DNA of 64,000 nucleotides, from contig CM000436.1 of NCBI GenBank assembly GCA_000165345.1, positions 928,001 to 992,000 on the forward strand, given 5' to 3'. Made by a program: the position numbers and the translations under genes. The notes under the pieces are model-generated. The model was not told where the DNA came from. It saw only the letters and a program-made list of their open reading frames with translations, and did no database searches. Below, piece by piece: positions 16,588-62,277 of the stretch. Every line of letters starts with the position of its first letter. Within the stretch, counting starts at the first letter, position 1.

Positions 16588-17961
16588 TCAATGATCTGAG
16601 AAAAAATGAGTATATATGATTGCAGAGAAGCAGAGTGGGTAAACCAATATAGAGAAAATGAGCAGGATCACAGCCATGATCTTTGAAGTGTTCCAAGGGG
16701 AATCTGAAAATAACTTGAGATGTAGAACAGCCGGAAGGAAGTAACATACAGTATTTGAGCAAAATAGTCCAACAAATTCGTATGTGAGGCCAAGGTCAGA
16801 AACGAAATATGTAACAGTTGTACAGATAAAAAGGAAAATAAAGGTGAGAGTTCTAAGTAAGTGACGATCTTTTGTTGATGATCCTTCTGCATCTTCTCCA
16901 CTTTTAATAATAACGGCAAGGGACTTTCTGAATGAATGACAAGATACCGGGAATGAAAATACAAGCGATGATACTAATACAATTTTAGCAATAACAACAG
17001 TTAGTGATTGAGTACCAAACATACTGAGGATATCAGAGGACTTGAGAGTGTTTCCAAACAGCATATATCCTGAAGAACCCATAAGGATGTAAATTAAAGT
17101 ACAAAATCCAAGTGAAACAACTGAAGAGAAAACCAATTTGTATAACGTCTTGTCTGCAAGCTCATTTGCAACGTTGAGGAAGTTGTGGTGGCATGTGAAA
17201 GAAAACACAAATATTGGGAATGTCTGGAGCATAAAAATTGGTCTCCTAGTTGAGATAAGTTCAACCTTCTCAAGCATTGTTGTAAGTTCTGGAAGGCCAA
17301 CAAGGAAGCTGAATATTACAACTGCTGCAACATAGAGGGATGAAAATACAGCAATCCAATTAATGATAGTAAGCTCGGCAAGAGATGTAGGATAACTGGC
17401 TGGACCGATAATAAAAATCACAACAAATAACAAAATTGCAGTTCTCGTATTAGATTCTGATAGATATGGAGCAAGAAAACCCCCGAACAAGGTTTGTATT
17501 ACAGCTACAACGACCATAAGATAAGTAATACAGGACCCAAGTGACATAATTAGTATGGATGTATCGATCAGTGACTTTAGCTTTGGGAAAGTTTTTTCAG
17601 CAATCGAATAGTATGTTACAGGCATCATTGTACCTGTTGGATCTTCATTAAGTGATATTTCGGAAAGAAGAATGCATGCAAGCGTTGAAAACATGCCTGA
17701 TATTATTGTCATAAAGATTCCTTGTAAAAGTCCATTTTTACTGTATGCCCAAGGTAATCCAAGAATTCCGACTCCCATTGTTGTGTTTACCAAAGCAAAA
17801 AATGAAGAAGTCATCGACCCCTTTTTATACCTTTTTTCAATAAAATTTTCCATCCCAATTAAGACCTGCTCTGATAATCGGGATATAAAGCTCTCCTTTG
17901 AGCTTTTCCTAATTGTAGATCTGGAAGGAAGTAAGCTTTTTTCTTCATTTAGAGTTCTCAT
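16588..17961 (-). CDS. amino-acid transporter, Aa_trans (AAAP/SLC36-38-like) family, about 11 TM, 457 aa
   Basis: The N-terminal signature SFFALVNTTMGVGILGLPWAYSKNGLLQGIFMTII is followed by multiple hydrophobic helices. ATG at 17961. Confidence 0.75.
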   Translation of the reverse strand: MRTLNEEKSLLPSRSTIRKSSKESFISRLSEQVLIGMENFIEKRYKKGSMTSSFFALVNTTMGVGILGLPWAYSKNGLLQGIFMTIISGMFSTLACILLSEISLNEDPTGTMMPVTYYSIAEKTFPKLKSLIDTSILIMSLGSCITYLMVVVAVIQTLFGGFLAPYLSESNTRTAILLFVVIFIIGPASYPTSLAELTIINWIAVFSSLYVAAVVIFSFLVGLPELTTMLEKVELISTRRPIFMLQTFPIFVFSFTCHHNFLNVANELADKTLYKLVFSSVVSLGFCTLIYILMGSSGYMLFGNTLKSSDILSMFGTQSLTVVIAKIVLVSSLVFSFPVSCHSFRKSLAVIIKSGEDAEGSSTKDRHLLRTLTFIFLFICTTVTYFVSDLGLTYEFVGLFCSNTVCYFLPAVLHLKLFSDSPWNTSKIMAVILLIFSILVYPLCFSAIIYTHFFSDH

Positions 17962-33488: not shown

Positions 33489-34934
33489 ATGGAGGTAGAT
33501 TTCCATACTCTATACTCAAAAGCAGCTAGTAGTTGGTCTCTTTTACAATTGGATCCAAATTGCGAGGAAAGCCTTAGAAATGGGAAACAGTTATGGTTAA
33601 AGGGCCTGAAAAACAATAGAGAGAACTGTAATGTTCCAACAGTTATTTGTACAGAAAACGAGACCTTTTATCTTAGACGTGAGAAAAGTAGTAATGTAAC
33701 GTATTTAGCTATCGAATCTGAAAATGGAGAATTAATTGAGATGCAAAACGATGAGAACTCTCCTAACAATGAAAGCTACAATGCAAATAAACTTTCAGTA
33801 GTTGGAAATTTGAACAGCATTGTAGTTATGATTAAAATTCCTGCTATTATGAATCTTTTCGAGGATTACATAGCTAGTCATAGAAATTTAACTAATAATT
33901 CACACTCCGAAATGACTTTTAAAAAGCTATTTAGCATATCTCAGATAAGTTTGATGGAGCTATATAATTTCTTATTTGATTACAGCAGCATGATGTACTG
34001 TGATATAGAAGGAAACTGGTATTCAATTAACAACGAAATTTTGTTATTTTTGTTGAGCTCGCTTTTACAAAAAGGGATGTCAATGAATAAATCTTTCAGG
34101 TATATGACTGTTAAAGATGTAAAATACTTGCTAAGAGAATCTTTTTCAGAGTTAGAATCTCTAGGGGAATCTTTGGAAAATAGCATTAATTACAACGTTT
34201 TAAAGCATGCATTGAGTTTTGACTTAACGTTAATCCAATTGATCAAACATATCATCGTTCCTGCAGATAACAATTTAGGAAATTTGGTTTTCGATGAATT
34301 TGTCGAGGAAAACATTAAAAATCTTCTATCTTCTCCTCGGATACAGGATCATGTGTCTCTAAGAAACATTGATAGCATGAGAGTTGACTTTTCATATAAG
34401 AGAATACAGGGAATTCTTGCTACATCTATTTTAAAAAAACATCAAGTTCTGAAAGCAAGAGATTATATTGAGGAATTTCAAAACATTCTTTCAAACTATA
34501 TTCCTTTAGAACTAAGTGAACTAGAATTCGAATATAATGACACAAACGCAATATCAGATTTAGATGGCGAAAAAAATATCAAGGTAGAAACTGACTTTTA
34601 CTATGGGTTCCCTTTAATCGAAAACCATCCAGATAACACGGGGATCAGGTTCGATATAATTGCGGGTCAGGCATATTACAATCATGAGGATGATGCAATT
34701 ATTTATTTGCCCAGTTCGTCCCTTCCAATTGACCCACGTAATAGGCTCTCAATTTTGTTTCGCAAAAAGAAGCATTGGCATATTTCGGAGCTTAATGCTT
34801 ACATTTCTCCAGTTCTACAGCCGAGCATTAAACTTGAAGCGTTCTGCCTTAAAAATTGCTATGTTTGTGAACAAAATATTTTTAATAAAAATTATAGACT
34901 TTTTTACAATAAAAATCTTCCTCTCATGCATTAG
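33489..34934 (+). CDS. hypothetical protein, possible DCC1 (Ctf18-RFC subunit)-like, 481 aa
   Basis: ATG at 33489. The N-terminal block TVICTENETFYLRREKSSNVTYLAIE resembles the DSCC1 N-terminal motif (..LCSKDKTYDLKIADTSN..). Otherwise unassigned. Confidence 0.4.
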   Translation: MEVDFHTLYSKAASSWSLLQLDPNCEESLRNGKQLWLKGLKNNRENCNVPTVICTENETFYLRREKSSNVTYLAIESENGELIEMQNDENSPNNESYNANKLSVVGNLNSIVVMIKIPAIMNLFEDYIASHRNLTNNSHSEMTFKKLFSISQISLMELYNFLFDYSSMMYCDIEGNWYSINNEILLFLLSSLLQKGMSMNKSFRYMTVKDVKYLLRESFSELESLGESLENSINYNVLKHALSFDLTLIQLIKHIIVPADNNLGNLVFDEFVEENIKNLLSSPRIQDHVSLRNIDSMRVDFSYKRIQGILATSILKKHQVLKARDYIEEFQNILSNYIPLELSELEFEYNDTNAISDLDGEKNIKVETDFYYGFPLIENHPDNTGIRFDIIAGQAYYNHEDDAIIYLPSSSLPIDPRNRLSILFRKKKHWHISELNAYISPVLQPSIKLEAFCLKNCYVCEQNIFNKNYRLFYNKNLPLMH

Positions 34935-35291: not shown

Positions 35292-35806
35292 ATGAAATTG
35301 ATATTATTATTAATACTGTTTTTGGTACAAATTTCTTATATTAAGGTTGGATATGGTTTGAATGTTGAAAACTCAATACATATTCAAGAAAGTTCTATCA
35401 ACTTAAAAACCTCTACCAAAGATTCATTAAAGTCTAAGGAGTCCCCGGTAACAAACTTAAATATACCTTTGGATGGAAATTCAACAGATACTAACATATT
35501 GAATGCATTGGCATCGGTTCTGCCACTTAAATCAACTTCTAACTCACCTGATGATGCAAAAGATAAGGAGGCATCGGATCTATCTTATTTTGAACCCAAA
35601 GTACTTTATACGACAATCCCTGTGATCGTCATATGTATGGTTGGTATTGCAGTGTTAGCAGAACTATTTGGAGATGGTTTCGAATCAGGAAAGTAAGTTT
35701 TAATTATTTTACACTTAATTTTTCAAATTTTAATTTTTTCTGTTTTAGGAGAAGACTATCAATGATACCAGAGTCTGTTAAAAGAAGAGGGAGAGCATCA
35801 ATATAG
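35292..35806 (+). CDS. small Ser/Thr-rich (mucin-like) type-I membrane protein, 2 exons: join(35292..35692, 35749..35806)
   Basis: ORF 35145.. starts with TTG. The first ATG at 35292 gives signal peptide MKLILLLILFLVQISYIKVGYG. The C-terminal TM is IPVIVICMVGIAVLAELF. The ORF-track stop is created by GTAAGT at 35693..35698. A 56-bp intron ends ttttttctgttttAG (35747..35748), and phase 2 is maintained. The spliced tail is ..FESGK-RRLSMIPESVKRRGRASI*, a basic cytoplasmic tail consistent with the positive-inside rule. Confidence 0.6.
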
Positions 35807-35890
35807 AATGTAGATAAAAAGTTCTACCTGTACTTTTTATTTTTCCTAAATAGTAATATAATAAATTTCTAGAATAAGATATTTTTTAAT

Positions 35891-36511
35891 CTATTGCGTG
35901 ATGAATTCTCTTAGACATTTTTTCAAATTTATATAATTTTCTTTGCCTTCTAAGATATCTCCGTATGGTGAGCATTGGAAGTAACTTAGGCATGCTTGGA
36001 TATTTCGTGTATGATAACTTTTAAGCTTCTCTATTAGGTTGAATATTTTATTTTGAACTTTTATGTCAGATTCAATGCAATCTTTCCATTCACAAAGAAA
36101 GTCTAATACAATATCGACGGAAATCCCAGAGCTTGAACCTCCAATAATGCTCGAATAAATCATTTCATTATATGTTTCAGTAAAACTTGAAAGATGAGTA
36201 TAAATTTCATCAATCCCACTTTGTATTTGACTAATTTCTTGCATTTTTTCTATTGCAAGATTTTTTGAATGATTTAATTGGTCCTGAATAGCCTCTGCAC
36301 TTCCAGAAATATAGCTTTGATTCAAGCTAAACATATTTAAACATAGGCATGACTTTTGATTTAAATATGCAGATTCTATTTTTAGTGCAGAGTATTTTTG
36401 TACTGACTTTTGGAGTTCCAACCTATATTTCGACCATACTTCGATAAGTCTCAAGAGATCAATTAAAGGGTTGTACAAAAGCCTCCTAATCTCACGACTA
36501 ATTAGGCCCAT
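35891..36511 (-). CDS. hypothetical coiled-coil protein, 206 aa
   Basis: ATG at 36511. No domain recognised. Divergent to the Ubc6 gene with an E2F-like motif between them. Confidence 0.45.
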   Translation of the reverse strand: MGLISREIRRLLYNPLIDLLRLIEVWSKYRLELQKSVQKYSALKIESAYLNQKSCLCLNMFSLNQSYISGSAEAIQDQLNHSKNLAIEKMQEISQIQSGIDEIYTHLSSFTETYNEMIYSSIIGGSSSGISVDIVLDFLCEWKDCIESDIKVQNKIFNLIEKLKSYHTRNIQACLSYFQCSPYGDILEGKENYINLKKCLREFITQ

Positions 36512-36610: not shown

Positions 36611-36752
36611 ACTGGGGATAAATTAGTAATTATGTATGGACCATATTTAATTATAAATACTAATATTTTATATTATTGCAAGTAAGAGAACAGTTAAAGG
36701 GATTCGAAGGTACAATTGGATTAAAGAAAGCGATTTTTCTTTGGATCCTAAG

Positions 36753-37763
36753 ATGCATCAAACAGGAGCAAGGGGAGTAGGTAGTTCTGGAATTACATCT
36801 GTTCAATGCTTGAGTAGGATTCTGCGAGAATATAGAGAAATACAGAAAGAGCCTAGCTCTTACTGGTGTGCGTTTCCAATAAATATGGATGAGCCGTATG
36901 AGTGGCATTTTACTATTAAGGGACCGGCAGGAACCGAGTTTGAAGGAGGAATGTATCATGGGAGAATCATATTGCCTCACTCGTATCCATTTTCGCCTCC
37001 ATCTTTAATGATGCTAACGGGAAATGGTCGCTTTGAAGTTGGGAAAAAAGTATGTCTTAGTGCTAGCAATTACCACCCTGAACTTTGGCAACCTGCTTGG
37101 GGGATCAGAACAATGTTAGATGCTTTGCACGCCTTCTTTCCAACGCCAGGAGAAGGAGCAATACATTCTTTAGATTGGAGTCCTGAGATTAGGAAGAAGT
37201 TGGCTAAAGATAGCGTTAATTGGCATTGTAACACTTGTCAGGAAACGAATTTGGAAGCTCTTTCTCGTCTATCTCCCGAAGATCAAGATACTGCTTCTAA
37301 AGAATCTTTAACTCATAGTGAAAATCCATTAATCCAACACATTAATAACTGTATAAATGAATCAAAAGCTGTTGAAAAGGATAAAAAAAAGAATAAAGAA
37401 ACTGAAAAAATCTCAGATAAAGATGATGAATACGACAACACTGAGAATAGCCAGAAATCAGATATATATGAATCAAGTAGTTTGGATATTACAAATAAAG
37501 ATGAATCCTCCAGCTTAAGTAATGAGGGCCAGCCAAGTTCAAGGTCCTTTTCACCAACTCAACACTTAGGGACTGTTGTAATCCCTCCAAATAGACTTCC
37601 TCCGAAGATTTCCCAGCAGAGCATTGCTTGGAGCTTTTTACTTGTAAAAAAGCCTTCAAATATTCTCGAAGGAGTGGCAACTTTAATCGATTTATTCATT
37701 GGTATTTTACTTATCACAATATTTATACTTTTTGTCAGATTATTTTCTACGTTTATCTTATAG
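36753..37763 (+). CDS. tail-anchored ubiquitin-conjugating enzyme E2, Ubc6/UBE2J-type (ERAD E2)
   Basis: ORF 36741 starts with TTG. The first ATG is at 36753. The UBC fold has a family-6 signature (EWHFTIKGPAGTEFEGGMYHGRIILPHSYPFSPPSLMMLTGNGRFEVGKKVCLSASNYHPELWQPAWGIRTML). The catalytic Cys is in KVCLS. The C-terminal TM anchor is LIDLFIGILLITIFILFVRLF. Confidence 0.85.
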   Translation: MHQTGARGVGSSGITSVQCLSRILREYREIQKEPSSYWCAFPINMDEPYEWHFTIKGPAGTEFEGGMYHGRIILPHSYPFSPPSLMMLTGNGRFEVGKKVCLSASNYHPELWQPAWGIRTMLDALHAFFPTPGEGAIHSLDWSPEIRKKLAKDSVNWHCNTCQETNLEALSRLSPEDQDTASKESLTHSENPLIQHINNCINESKAVEKDKKKNKETEKISDKDDEYDNTENSQKSDIYESSSLDITNKDESSSLSNEGQPSSRSFSPTQHLGTVVIPPNRLPPKISQQSIAWSFLLVKKPSNILEGVATLIDLFIGILLITIFILFVRLFSTFIL

Positions 37764-61180: not shown

Positions 61181-61358
61181 TTATATGGTTTTACACGACA
61201 TGTACATGTCATTTTTGGCCTGAAGTGTGATTGAATAATAATTTTTACTAAAAACAAAAATAGATAGAAATTGAGATAATTTTTTCAAAAGTAATACATG
61301 GAATCTTGTGGGAGTATCACAGAAGAGTGTATTTGAGAATTATACGTCTAAAGAAAGA

Positions 61359-62162
61359 ATGGCTTCTCTCAATGATATTAGTAAAGGTTCACAGGGGAGC
61401 CAGTTAATAGATTTAAATGGCTCTGAGAAGAGAAATGACTATATGGACTACATGTCACATTTGCAAAGTAGTGCTGCTCAATTGAGATATGAAAATAGTG
61501 TTTTAAAGAATGATAATGCAAATTTAGTATCAAAGTTGGACAGAGCTGTGAGTAAGAGTAGAAATGGAGTAGAAATACCAGAAAATGCAACAACAGCAGA
61601 AATTGCGGAGGCATTTGAAAAGTTGAATGATGAAAACTGCAGATTAAAGAGAGAAATGGAACGTTTGATACGATCAAATACTAGATATAGGGTTGCAATG
61701 CAAAATAGAGATCCTAGCTTAATTCCCTCTGAAGAACAAGATAAAAGTTTTTTTAACTCTGATGACTCTGGAGGAAGGTTATGCCAGTGTGAATATATAC
61801 TTAATGAAATTCTAGAAGCAGTTTCTTATAAGTTAGAAACTTATGAAAAGCATATCTGGGAACATAGATTAGCTACTTTAACTAGTGAAAGAGATGAAAT
61901 TGCTGTCCAGAATATTTCACTAGTAGATAGGCTAGCTGAAATTGAAGCAATTATTAAAGTAGATCATGTTCTTGCTGAAAGATTTAATGTTCCTCTAGAA
62001 GGTTGTGATGAAAAGAATCAAATATTAACTTTACACCGTAAGTTGGGCTTTGCATTGGATGTAAACCAGCAGCTCGAAAGAAGATTAGCTTTTGAAACGC
62101 AGCTTTCAAGATCTTGGCAAAGTAATATGCATACAATTGTTAGTGAGGTAAGTTTTTCCTAA
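61359..62162 (+). CDS. hypothetical coiled-coil protein (gene A), about 268 aa
   Basis: ORF 61308 starts GTG. The first in-frame ATG is at 61359 (MASLNDISK). Heptad-rich. It ends ..TIVSEVSFS*, but the last codons read GAG|GTAAGT (see findings for the alternative fusion model). Confidence 0.5.
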   Translation: MASLNDISKGSQGSQLIDLNGSEKRNDYMDYMSHLQSSAAQLRYENSVLKNDNANLVSKLDRAVSKSRNGVEIPENATTAEIAEAFEKLNDENCRLKREMERLIRSNTRYRVAMQNRDPSLIPSEEQDKSFFNSDDSGGRLCQCEYILNEILEAVSYKLETYEKHIWEHRLATLTSERDEIAVQNISLVDRLAEIEAIIKVDHVLAERFNVPLEGCDEKNQILTLHRKLGFALDVNQQLERRLAFETQLSRSWQSNMHTIVSEVSFS

Positions 62163-62277
62163 AAAGTTTGCCATTTGCTAACTTTATTGTGACCAATTTC
62201 TAATTTCCCGCCACCCCACATTGCAATTATTACATGCATTTGCAAATTATTTGCACATTTTATAGTTAAGGCAATAT

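Follow-up and report, generated by a model that had tools for sequence, protein, structure and literature searches.

Among the described small membrane proteins, FXYD/phospholemman and phospholamban are tiny, have a single transmembrane (TM) segment and combine a conserved aromatic/acidic juxtamembrane motif and a one-faced TM helix with a short basic tail of the RRxS type. Both tails carry PKA sites, RRLS in phospholemman and RRAS in phospholamban, the topology of the latter being opposite to type I. TASK K2P channels (…KRRKSV-COOH) and GPR15 join an Arg-based ER-sorting signal to a C-terminal mode III 14-3-3 site, and yeast Psg1/Ykl077w (PF14610), an escort of the Pma1 H+-ATPase, has the layout of a type I glycoprotein. 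Cryptosporidium possesses GalNAc-transferases and many mucin-like adhesins, with gp900, gp40/15, CpMuc1-7 and Muc25 among the mucins; a mucin domain is commonly recognised by a Ser/Thr content of roughly 40% or more, or by homopolymeric Ser/Thr tracts, usually with Pro.

The Cryptosporidium gene described here may be compared with each of these systems. It shares with FXYD/phospholemman and phospholamban the tiny single-TM build, an aromatic/acidic juxtamembrane motif, a one-faced TM helix and a short basic tail with RRxS-type sites, as a functional analogy only; its juxtamembrane motif, YFEPKVLY, is unlike that of FXYD, and no FXYD (PF02038) Pfam match at E <= 10 was obtained for any of 11 family members (0/11). 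The end of its tail, KRRGRAS-I-COOH, resembles TASK and GPR15 in having an RxR-type cluster just before the penultimate serine, which is an analogy of motifs only, and with Psg1 it has a predicted type I glycoprotein layout in common. From the mucins listed it differs in most respects, as discussed below.

The locus lies in a window of 64,000 nucleotides (positions 928,001 to 992,000 of contig CM000436.1, assembly GCA_000165345.1) and is the annotated C. parvum gene cgd8_3830/CPATCC_0004050, a single-copy gene of chromosome 8. In coordinates of the window its structure is as follows:

35292..35692, forward strand: exon 1, codons 1-133 plus 2 bases of codon 134, opening with the first in-frame ATG; its translation is P0001 residues 1-133
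35693..35748, forward strand: intron, phase-2 GT-AG, spliceosomal type, 56 nt, 14% G+C, donor GTAAGTT
35749..35806, forward strand: exon 2, 58 nt; it codes for the cytoplasmic tail, (K)RRLSMIPESVKRRGRASI, and closes with the stop TAG at 35804-35806
35860..35865, forward strand: AATAAA, the sole poly(A)-signal-like hexamer in 35650-35900, 3' of the exon-2 stop, which is weak evidence

An earlier note on this DNA had taken the ATG at 35292 as the true start, and the public models agree with it; a longer 'ORF' from 35145 opens with a bacterial-code TTG. The note had also placed the apparent stop inside GGA AA|GTAAGT, and indeed the TAA at 35694-35696, which closes the unspliced frame at 134 aa, falls within the donor itself. 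The 3' end of the intron reads ttttttctgttttAG, a T-rich tract followed by AG (TTTTAG), and a branch-like TTTTAAT is found about 15 nt 5' of the acceptor. No poly(A)-signal-like hexamer is present within the intron (35693-35748); poly(A) signals of Cryptosporidium are poorly defined. Splicing would replace the donor-site stop with 19 codons of a basic tail, and the resulting product has 152 aa and the C-terminal end KRRLSMIPESVKRRGRASI.

Taken by itself the C. parvum sequence is weak evidence for the intron. The heptamer GTAAGTT occurs in the window 19 times versus 9.7 +/- 3.1 expected, so that about half of such motifs are there by chance, and 19 open codons are easily found. The case becomes compelling, still as a matter of comparative sequence analysis, once 11 Cryptosporidium lineages are compared, the gastric C. 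muris and C. serpentis included. The donor GTAAGTT stands in phase 2 at the same position in all 11, while the introns themselves measure 56, 58, 58, 59, 59, 62, 63, 63, 64, 68 and 79 nt, lengths that cover all three classes modulo 3, and reading through them meets stop codons in each of the 8 intestinal-clade lineages translated in this way. Exon 2, on the other side, has 58 nt in 11/11 lineages. Its identity to C. parvum is 74-93% versus 47-83% for the intron, which diverges more than the flanking exons. Compared codon by codon in 8 intestinal-clade lineages, exon 2 has 5/2/18 variable sites at first, second and third codon positions, and the same lineages give 237 synonymous versus 57 non-synonymous pairwise codon differences.

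An opposite view would be that the intron is kept or only rarely removed, so that the protein in use would be the 134-aa form with the end …GFESGK that the 2004 Iowa II and TU502 annotations give. Without splicing the ORF is complete, and models that end at the donor-site TAA are still in use: XP_627275.1 of the 2004 Iowa II set (134 aa, the only C. parvum model without the tail), TU502, XP_668060.1, the current C. canis annotations (two assemblies), chipmunk genotype I, C. xiaoi and C. ryanae. Besides, all Logan contigs that bear the gene are unspliced, though their size, 2 to 36 kb, marks them as genomic; none of the Logan-derived contigs gives the 152-aa product, and the exact exon-exon junction sought in JGI metagenome contigs gave 0 matches, an uninformative result. 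Against such a view, exon 2 keeps a constant length and a near-invariant peptide throughout the genus while changes have saturated its third codon positions, which would be inexplicable if exon 2 were not translated. The in-frame TAA simply falls within the GTAAGT consensus, the spliced model was the one chosen in RNA-seq-based re-annotations, and a protein lacking exon 2 would show to the cytosol a net acidic stub, contrary to the positive-inside rule. We regard retention of the intron as highly improbable and conclude that the gene is composed of two exons around what the genus-wide comparison marks as a genuine 56-nt phase-2 GT-AG intron.

The spliced model is not new. Our product and the public C. 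parvum models (CPATCC_0004050, QOY40149.1, CPHLJ_8g3830) agree in 152/152 residues (100% identity), so the intron is already known, and public annotations have carried it since they were redone with RNA-seq; the CPATCC annotation, where introns are described as 100% RNA-seq supported, includes it. A table in Isaza 2015, which draws on RNA-seq-based gene models, gives for the pair cgd8_3830/CHUDEA8_3830 an identity of 0.987. This value equals 150/152 when the exon-2 difference M139V is counted, and the model behind that table entry would thus be the spliced one. The intron, the junction 35692/35749 and the basic tail proposed in the earlier note coincide exactly with the public spliced models and are conserved genus-wide; the call was right, and it demonstrates that short Cryptosporidium introns can be recovered by a careful reader from sequence alone.

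The encoded protein may be divided into the following parts, in the same coordinates:

35292..35357, forward strand: predicted signal peptide MKLILLLILFLVQISYIKVGYG, residues 1-22, heuristic cleavage after G-Y-G
35358..35585, forward strand: luminal/extracellular domain, residues 23-98, short, moderately Ser-rich, predicted disordered, the least conserved part
35478..35486, forward strand: N-glycosylation sequon N63-S-T65 of predicted use, with N-x-T at the aligned position in 9/9 intestinal-clade orthologues examined
35586..35609, forward strand: juxtamembrane YFEPKVLY, residues 99-106, 7/8 positions invariant and the eighth K/R in the 11-lineage alignment
35604..35669, forward strand: transmembrane helix, about residues 105-126, Kyte-Doolittle up to 2.5, conserved face I112, M116, I119, A123, E124
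35667..35692, forward strand: membrane-proximal FGDGFESG-K, residues 126-134, the last codon split by the intron; F126, G127, G129 and E131 invariant in 11 lineages

The N-terminal segment (residues 1-22) has a Kyte-Doolittle value of about 2.1, also when taken over residues 1-19, a hydrophobic core at 3-12, Lys2 and G-Y-G at -3..-1, with small residues at -3 and -1 of the predicted cleavage site. It is kept in orthologues, and the adjoining NVENS is conserved in the intestinal clade. The stretch at about 105-126 is the single internal hydrophobic one, and the tail has 7 K/R versus 1 E, only when exon 2 is spliced in. Hydropathy and charge distribution fit a type I single-pass topology, in agreement with the layout of a signal-peptide-like segment, one TM segment and a basic tail drawn in the earlier note. 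GPI anchoring was rejected in view of the basic, non-hydrophobic C-terminus, and a class I PDZ ligand because Ser is at -1 and not at -2.

Conservation is distributed very unequally between these parts. Mean column entropy over the 11 lineages is 0.45 bits for the juxtamembrane motif with the TM helix, 0.58 for the tail and 1.23 for the ectodomain, and between C. parvum and C. muris similarity is limited to the last 54 aa (65% identity). The tail follows the pattern [KR]RRxS…P-E…[KR]R…RAS[IV]-COOH, in which R136, S138, R146, R149, A150 and S151 are invariant over the same lineages, and its terminus [KR]R[RK]xRAS[IV]-COOH is present in 11/11; the RxR cluster with the S-X-COOH end, taken as a sequence pattern only, is equally invariant. 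Variability along the TM segment is periodic, with a helical moment of 0.247 versus 0.107 in shuffles (0.8% of which reach the observed value), a test made on 11 related sequences and 22 positions. Selection thus acts mainly on the last 54 residues, comprising YFEPKVLY, the TM helix, FGDGFE and the tail, and not on the ectodomain. Selection on the gene is purifying, not diversifying, as the parvum/hominis dN/dS is 0.164 and the identity 98.7%, which is above that of most neighbouring genes in the table giving these values. AlphaFold2 run on a 9-sequence alignment gave helices only for the signal peptide, the TM segment and a short 67-74 segment, with ectodomain pLDDT < 50; with a mean pLDDT of 53.7 and pTM of 0.20 the model is too poor for a fold search.

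The earlier note considered the protein as a mucin-like invasion or attachment antigen, that is, a heavily O-glycosylated type I surface glycoprotein whose ectodomain is the functional part. Several properties are in line with it: the protein has predicted secretory-pathway targeting, and its ectodomain is predicted to be disordered and is enriched in Ser: its S+T content is 24.7% (window background 15 +/- 5%), a value within the top 4.4% for 81-aa windows. It means that of the claimed S/T-rich ectodomain a moderate Ser enrichment stands, while S/T richness in the mucin sense does not. The best 40-aa window reaches 32.5% S+T, the longest S/T run is 3, Pro makes 6%, and Tandem Repeats Finder applied to 35292-35806 found no array, so that neither an S/T-dominated domain or tract nor a tandem-repeat or low-complexity region is present. 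Among orthologues the S+T content drifts from 16 to 31%, many Ser/Thr positions being Ala in other orthologues, and the ectodomain, about 80 aa long in C. parvum, is down to about 30 aa in two gastric species, C. muris and C. serpentis. The purifying selection described above and its concentration on the TM segment and tail do not speak for an antigen either. The relation to mucin-like glycoprotein families expected in the earlier note did not appear: among 1.84 billion representatives no other protein family was matched, and neither this collection nor the one of 5.8 billion proteins contains any link to a Cryptosporidium mucin family.

In common with gp900, gp40/15, CpMuc1-7 and Muc25 the cgd8_3830 product has predicted secretory targeting and a disordered, Ser-enriched extracellular segment able to carry some O-GalNAc, and isolated O-glycans may be present on it. 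Unlike them, it has no Ser/Thr-dominated domain, homopolymeric tracts, repeats, sequence similarity or sign of polymorphism, and the length of its ectodomain is dispensable across the genus. We find the mucin function unlikely, and composition gives no ground for listing the gene among mucin-like vaccine or adhesin candidates.

According to our analysis the family is confined to the genus Cryptosporidium. An exhaustive profile search over the 1.84 billion representatives returned Cryptosporidium proteins and one spurious bacterial protein, a 4767-aa repeat adhesin (P0016) in which 32 weak stretches are summed to E = 1e-18; it was rejected as a repeat/compositional artefact. Searches of the protein collections of 5.8 billion and 1.84 billion entries gave one-to-one orthologues only and no paralogues. 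Pfam scans of the protein and 11 orthologues at E <= 0.01 and E <= 10 gave scattered sub-threshold matches only, and a profile search of PDB sequences at E <= 10 gave nothing. The Psg1/Ykl077w family (PF14610) matched over the juxtamembrane/TM region in 2/11 members, both from gastric species, with 12.1 bits versus a gathering cut-off of 30.1 (E = 0.16). We rejected this membership as TM-segment noise because equally weak matches to DUF4519, DUF4834, SCIMP and YnaM stand beside it; the sub-threshold matches to DUF4519, DUF4834, YnaM, SCIMP and DUF4501, unrelated small-TM families, were discarded as TM noise too.

Putting these data together, we consider it probable that cgd8_3830 encodes a two-exon, genus-specific type I membrane protein which acts through its TM and cytosolic parts and whose ectodomain is a stalk and not a mucin. 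The protein would enter the ER, shed its signal peptide, gain an N-glycan at the conserved N-x-T and sit in the membrane with the N-terminus out and the C-terminus in. The ectodomain would form a short, variable, disordered and glycosylated stalk devoid of a mucin domain, leaving the action to the membrane-embedded and cytosolic parts, and the conserved face of the helix may pack on a partner membrane protein or on itself. Two serines of the tail, RRLS138 and RAS151-I-COOH, would be candidate sites for basophilic kinases. As an Arg-based (RxR) motif of the sorting type overlaps the second of them, trafficking or the binding of a partner could be under the control of phosphorylation. In a phosphoproteome study on sporozoites of C. 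parvum (PMC13599311) basic residues are enriched upstream of phosphosites. By inference only, it can be called a partner-binding, possibly phospho-regulated, single-pass membrane protein.

A more particular suggestion can be made with much caution. The protein may serve as an accessory subunit, single-pass, phospho-switchable and specific to Cryptosporidium, whose TM face would dock on a transporter, pump or channel, while RRxS and RxRAS-I-COOH would gate either trafficking, by Arg-based retention released upon phosphorylation and 14-3-3 binding, or the activity of the partner. It would follow the logic of FXYD/phospholamban or of the TASK C-terminus, evolved independently in Cryptosporidium. 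We offer this analogy as a tentative possibility, the phosphorylation, 14-3-3 and sorting elements of which are built on resemblance to short motifs of other systems. The conserved TM face and the phospho-consensus tail provide in any case a concrete and cheap hypothesis for tagging or knockout work.

The same tail could have a different meaning if the protein serves a secretory organelle (microneme, dense granule or small granule) as transmembrane cargo or as an escort, and if the tail is a sorting signal and not a regulatory site. The type I layout with a strongly conserved cytosolic tail would be suitable for such a role, and many Cryptosporidium secretory-organelle proteins are likewise genus-specific. 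The tail, however, lacks the Tyr-based and acidic-cluster motifs known in apicomplexan microneme TM proteins, the conserved TM face is left unexplained, and the gene is absent from the main text of the searched literature: no mention of cgd8_3830, CPATCC_0004050, CMU_005810, cubi_03611 or CHUDEA8_3830 was found there, the main text of papers citing the hyperLOPIT atlas included. This role seems to us doubtful, and action through a partner-binding TM face and a cytosolic tail stays our preferred reading.

In databases the orthologues are named 'hypothetical/uncharacterized protein', with the single exception of a UniRef 'Integral membrane protein', and cgd8_3830 is one among many small genus-restricted membrane proteins. 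Public spliced models, 152-154 aa in length, likewise exist for C. hominis, C. meleagridis, C. tyzzeri, C. ubiquitum and C. felis. Other public models of the gene are CHUDEA8_3830 (C. hominis), cubi_03611 (C. ubiquitum), CMU_005810 (C. muris) and cand_004370 (C. andersoni), and in the spliced ones the position of the intron and the tail agree with cgd8_3830. The unspliced entries miss an 18-residue tail that ranks among the protein's two best-conserved parts, and those of Iowa II, TU502, C. canis, chipmunk genotype I, C. xiaoi and C. ryanae, lacking it, need to be corrected. The surroundings of the gene are equally stable: cgd8_3830 is flanked by a Dcc1 homologue on one side and a convergent 206-aa gene on the other, and in the orthologue genomes the order Dcc1, the cgd8_3830 gene, a convergent 203-212-aa gene and UBC E2 is kept.

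The first in-frame ATG of cgd8_3830 (CPATCC_0004050; 35292-35806, plus strand) lies at 35292; the 183-codon "ORF" from 35145 is an artefact of an ORF lister that accepts TTG starts. From this ATG the unspliced frame ends after 134 aa at TAA 35694-35696, and this stop is part of a consensus donor, GGA AA/GTAAGT, where the slash marks the intron start at 35693. A T-rich tract and the AG at 35747-35748 close an intron of 56 nt, with a G+C content of 14% vs 33% and 38% in the exons. Joining of 35692 to 35749 keeps the frame open over 19 codons (K-RRLSMIPESVKRRGRASI) until TAG 35804-35806, and gives a product of 152 aa that is hydrophobic at residues 1-22 and about 105-126 and whose tail contains seven basic residues and one acidic. 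No poly(A)-like hexamers were found inside the intron 35693-35748, and the only one nearby, AATAAA at 35860, is downstream of the exon-2 stop. The start codon, the stop within the donor, the 56-nt intron and the tail restored by splicing are all as the earlier note had read them. Taken by itself, the C. parvum sequence is no more than suggestive of an intron: the window contains 19 copies of GTAAGTT vs 9.7 ± 3.1 expected from dinucleotide shuffles of both strands, none of which reached 19, so about half of these motifs are chance, and 19 further open codons are also not rare.

The comparison was extended to 11 lineages, namely C. parvum, C. ubiquitum, C. felis, chipmunk genotype I, C. canis, C. 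ryanae, the gastric C. muris and C. serpentis, and three Cryptosporidium assemblies from Logan. Synteny around cgd8_3830 was identical at all orthologous loci fetched, and in C. parvum the neighbours are:

33489-34934, Dcc1 homologue, upstream neighbour on chromosome 8
35891-36511, minus strand, convergent gene of 206 aa, downstream neighbour, with the ubiquitin-conjugating enzyme next
36741-37763, plus strand, ubiquitin-conjugating enzyme (PF00179) with a long low-complexity linker and a hydrophobic C-terminal segment (…LLITIFILFVRLFSTFIL)

In 11 of 11 lineages the donor GTAAGTT interrupts the same Lys/Arg codon after its second base, an AG acceptor is present, exon 2 is exactly 58 nt long and the tail has the pattern [KR][RK]R-x-S-x-x-[PH]-[EDN]-x-x-[KR]-R-x-x-R-A-S-[IV]. 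The intron lengths (56, 58, 58, 59, 59, 62, 63, 63, 64, 68 and 79 nt) cover all three mod-3 classes, and read-through hits stop codons in all eight intestinal-clade lineages translated. Among eight intestinal-clade sequences the variable sites of exon 2 are distributed 5/2/18 over first, second and third codon positions (of 19 each), with 237 synonymous vs 57 non-synonymous pairwise codon differences; identity to C. parvum is 47-83% for the intron vs 74-93% for exon 2. By this comparative evidence, exon 2 is translated and stands behind a real intron older than the split of gastric and intestinal species. The intron and tail exon proposed in the earlier note are borne out by position, phase, donor and exon-2 constraint; its functional interpretation as a mucin or adhesin is not supported by composition, homology and selection.

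The gene is an annotated, uncharacterised one, and its spliced model is public, the intron being already known. All 152 residues of the protein match C. parvum CPATCC_0004050, QOY40149.1 (CPATCC_004239), CPHLJ_8g3830, WKS79645.1 and WRK34147.1 (GenBank) with 100% identity, which places the window on C. parvum chromosome 8. Its 90% cluster includes both 152-aa models of C. hominis, C. meleagridis and C. tyzzeri and the original unspliced 134-aa models of C. parvum Iowa II (XP_627275.1/EAK89538.1, i.e. cgd8_3830) and C. hominis TU502. RNA support for the spliced model is addressed by Baptista et al. and Isaza et al. 2015; the latter re-annotated Iowa II with RNA-seq and kept models without expression evidence unchanged. 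Their supplementary table gives for CHUDEA8_3830/cgd8_3830 an identity of 0.987, dS 0.0359, dN 0.0059 and dN/dS 0.164. Between the 152-aa proteins of C. parvum and C. hominis there are exactly two differences, A72T and M139V, one of them in exon 2; since 150/152 is 0.987 with the exon-2 difference included, the Isaza model is therefore the spliced one. The exact exon-exon junction had no match in JGI metagenome contigs, and the gene-bearing Logan contigs derive from genomic DNA, not transcripts.

Deposited models of chipmunk genotype I (locus L003), C. canis (L004), C. ryanae (L013) and C. xiaoi end at the donor-site TAA with 132-138 aa, and the legacy Iowa II and TU502 entries likewise end at the TAA inside GTAAGT, without the conserved 18-residue tail (tail-less protein records P0003, P0006, P0007, P0020, P0022, P0011 and P0012). 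At the DNA level, every examined locus with such a model does contain the intron and the 58-nt exon 2, and these tail-less models need correction.

The ectodomain had been described as S/T-rich and mucin-like. Residues 23-103 contain 24.7% Ser+Thr and 6% Pro with a longest S/T run of 3; long ORFs of the window have 15 ± 5%, and 4.4% of 81-aa windows are as rich or richer. There are no tandem repeats within the gene. Ser+Thr content varies between 16 and 31% among orthologues, with Ala in place of many C. parvum Ser/Thr (e.g. KSTSNSP vs KAASNAV or KTASASA), and the C. muris and C. serpentis ectodomains have only about 30 aa. A HMMER profile search, run exhaustively over 1.84 billion representative proteins, returned only Cryptosporidium orthologues and one giant bacterial repeat adhesin (P0016, 4767 aa, E = 1e-18). 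We regard the latter as spurious, its score being a sum over 32 near-identical repeats, each weakly matching the Asp/Thr/Asn-rich ectodomain profile; summed repeat scores may appear significant, as this match shows. Because word-indexed searches of 5.8 billion proteins returned orthologues only, we find neither paralogues nor a connection with gp900, gp40/15 or the CpMuc family. In the table of Isaza et al. the parvum/hominis conservation of the gene is above that of most neighbours, and it is under purifying selection, the opposite of polymorphic mucin antigens. S/T content, lack of repeats and of mucin homology, purifying selection and the variable ectodomain all speak against a mucin-like glycoprotein, and the invasion/attachment-antigen reading of the earlier note is not supported either. 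Lists of mucins should leave this gene out. N-glycosylation is plausible, because the N-x-T sequon at N63 is kept in all intestinal-clade orthologues, and the ectodomain may carry scattered O-glycans.

Conservation is concentrated at the other end of the protein. Column entropy over the 11 lineages is:

Ectodomain, 1.23 bits
Predicted signal peptide, 0.82 bits
Tail, 0.58 bits
Juxtamembrane and TM, residues 99-133, 0.45 bits

C. parvum and C. muris can be aligned over the last 54 residues only, with 65% identity. Invariant are Y99, F100, E101, P102, V104, L105, Y106, T108, P110, I112, M116, I119, A123, E124, F126, G127, G129, E131, R136, S138, R146, R149, A150 and S151. TM variability is helically periodic (moment 0.247 vs 0.107 for shuffles, 0.8% of which reach the observed value), so one helix face (I112, M116, I119, A123) is conserved, as expected for packing on a partner. 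AlphaFold2 gives no confident fold (mean pLDDT 53.7, ectodomain <50), and Pfam and PDB searches with the protein returned nothing above noise. The gastric orthologues of C. muris (L012) and C. serpentis (L014) have a distinct, longer N-terminus (MQSKSNHCEIMQAC…). Since their ectodomain of about 30 residues lacks the intestinal-clade sequon and the NVENS/DSL/IPLDGN motifs, the ectodomain would have either grown in the intestinal lineage or lost sequence in the gastric one.

The best reading, from conservation, is that the membrane-embedded and cytosolic segments are the working parts of a single-pass protein that would bind something in the membrane and expose a short basic tail. This tail has a Kemptide-like RRLS138-Φ motif, and an RxR cluster stands before its invariant RAS151-[IV]-COOH end. 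Tails with RRxS-type sites are substrates of basophilic kinases (PKA/PKG/CDPK), and in TASK channels and GPR15, RxR with a penultimate phospho-Ser links retention by COPI to release by 14-3-3. In the C. parvum sporozoite phosphoproteome basic residues are enriched upstream of phosphosites. By analogy we infer a mechanism in which the protein would bind its membrane partner via the conserved TM face, a basophilic kinase may phosphorylate S138 and S151, and the phospho-Ser and RxR end may couple retention to 14-3-3 release. The boldest reading, in which the protein is a phospho-switchable accessory subunit or a trafficking switch particular to the genus, is in our estimate rather unlikely. By their defining features the protein belongs neither to mucin-like glycoproteins nor to FXYD or Psg1 proteins; its likeness to FXYD/phospholemman and phospholamban, small phospho-regulated single-pass subunits, is in logic only.

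Of the neighbours, the convergent 206-aa ORF keeps its syntenic position, at 203-212 aa, in every species examined and gave no Pfam match; 84 nt separate its stop from that of cgd8_3830, with the single AATAAA inside this gap. The ubiquitin-conjugating enzyme looks like a tail-anchored UBC6-type E2, and its translation probably begins not at the listed TTG but at the ATG that yields 336 aa. At 61308-63122 (plus strand), removal of two putative GTAAGTT…AG introns would fuse ORFs 61308-62162 and 62451-63122 into one frame free of stops:

62148-62265, plus strand, intron 1, 118 nt
62348-62418, plus strand, intron 2, 71 nt

The joined three-exon product would be coiled-coil-like, with a Ser/His-rich low-complexity C-terminus that includes a 12/24-nt tandem repeat (62948-62995). 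As GTAAGTT is about twice as frequent as in shuffles, its excess suggests several further short introns in the window, e.g. near 17282, 18206, 19761, 59573 and 60797.
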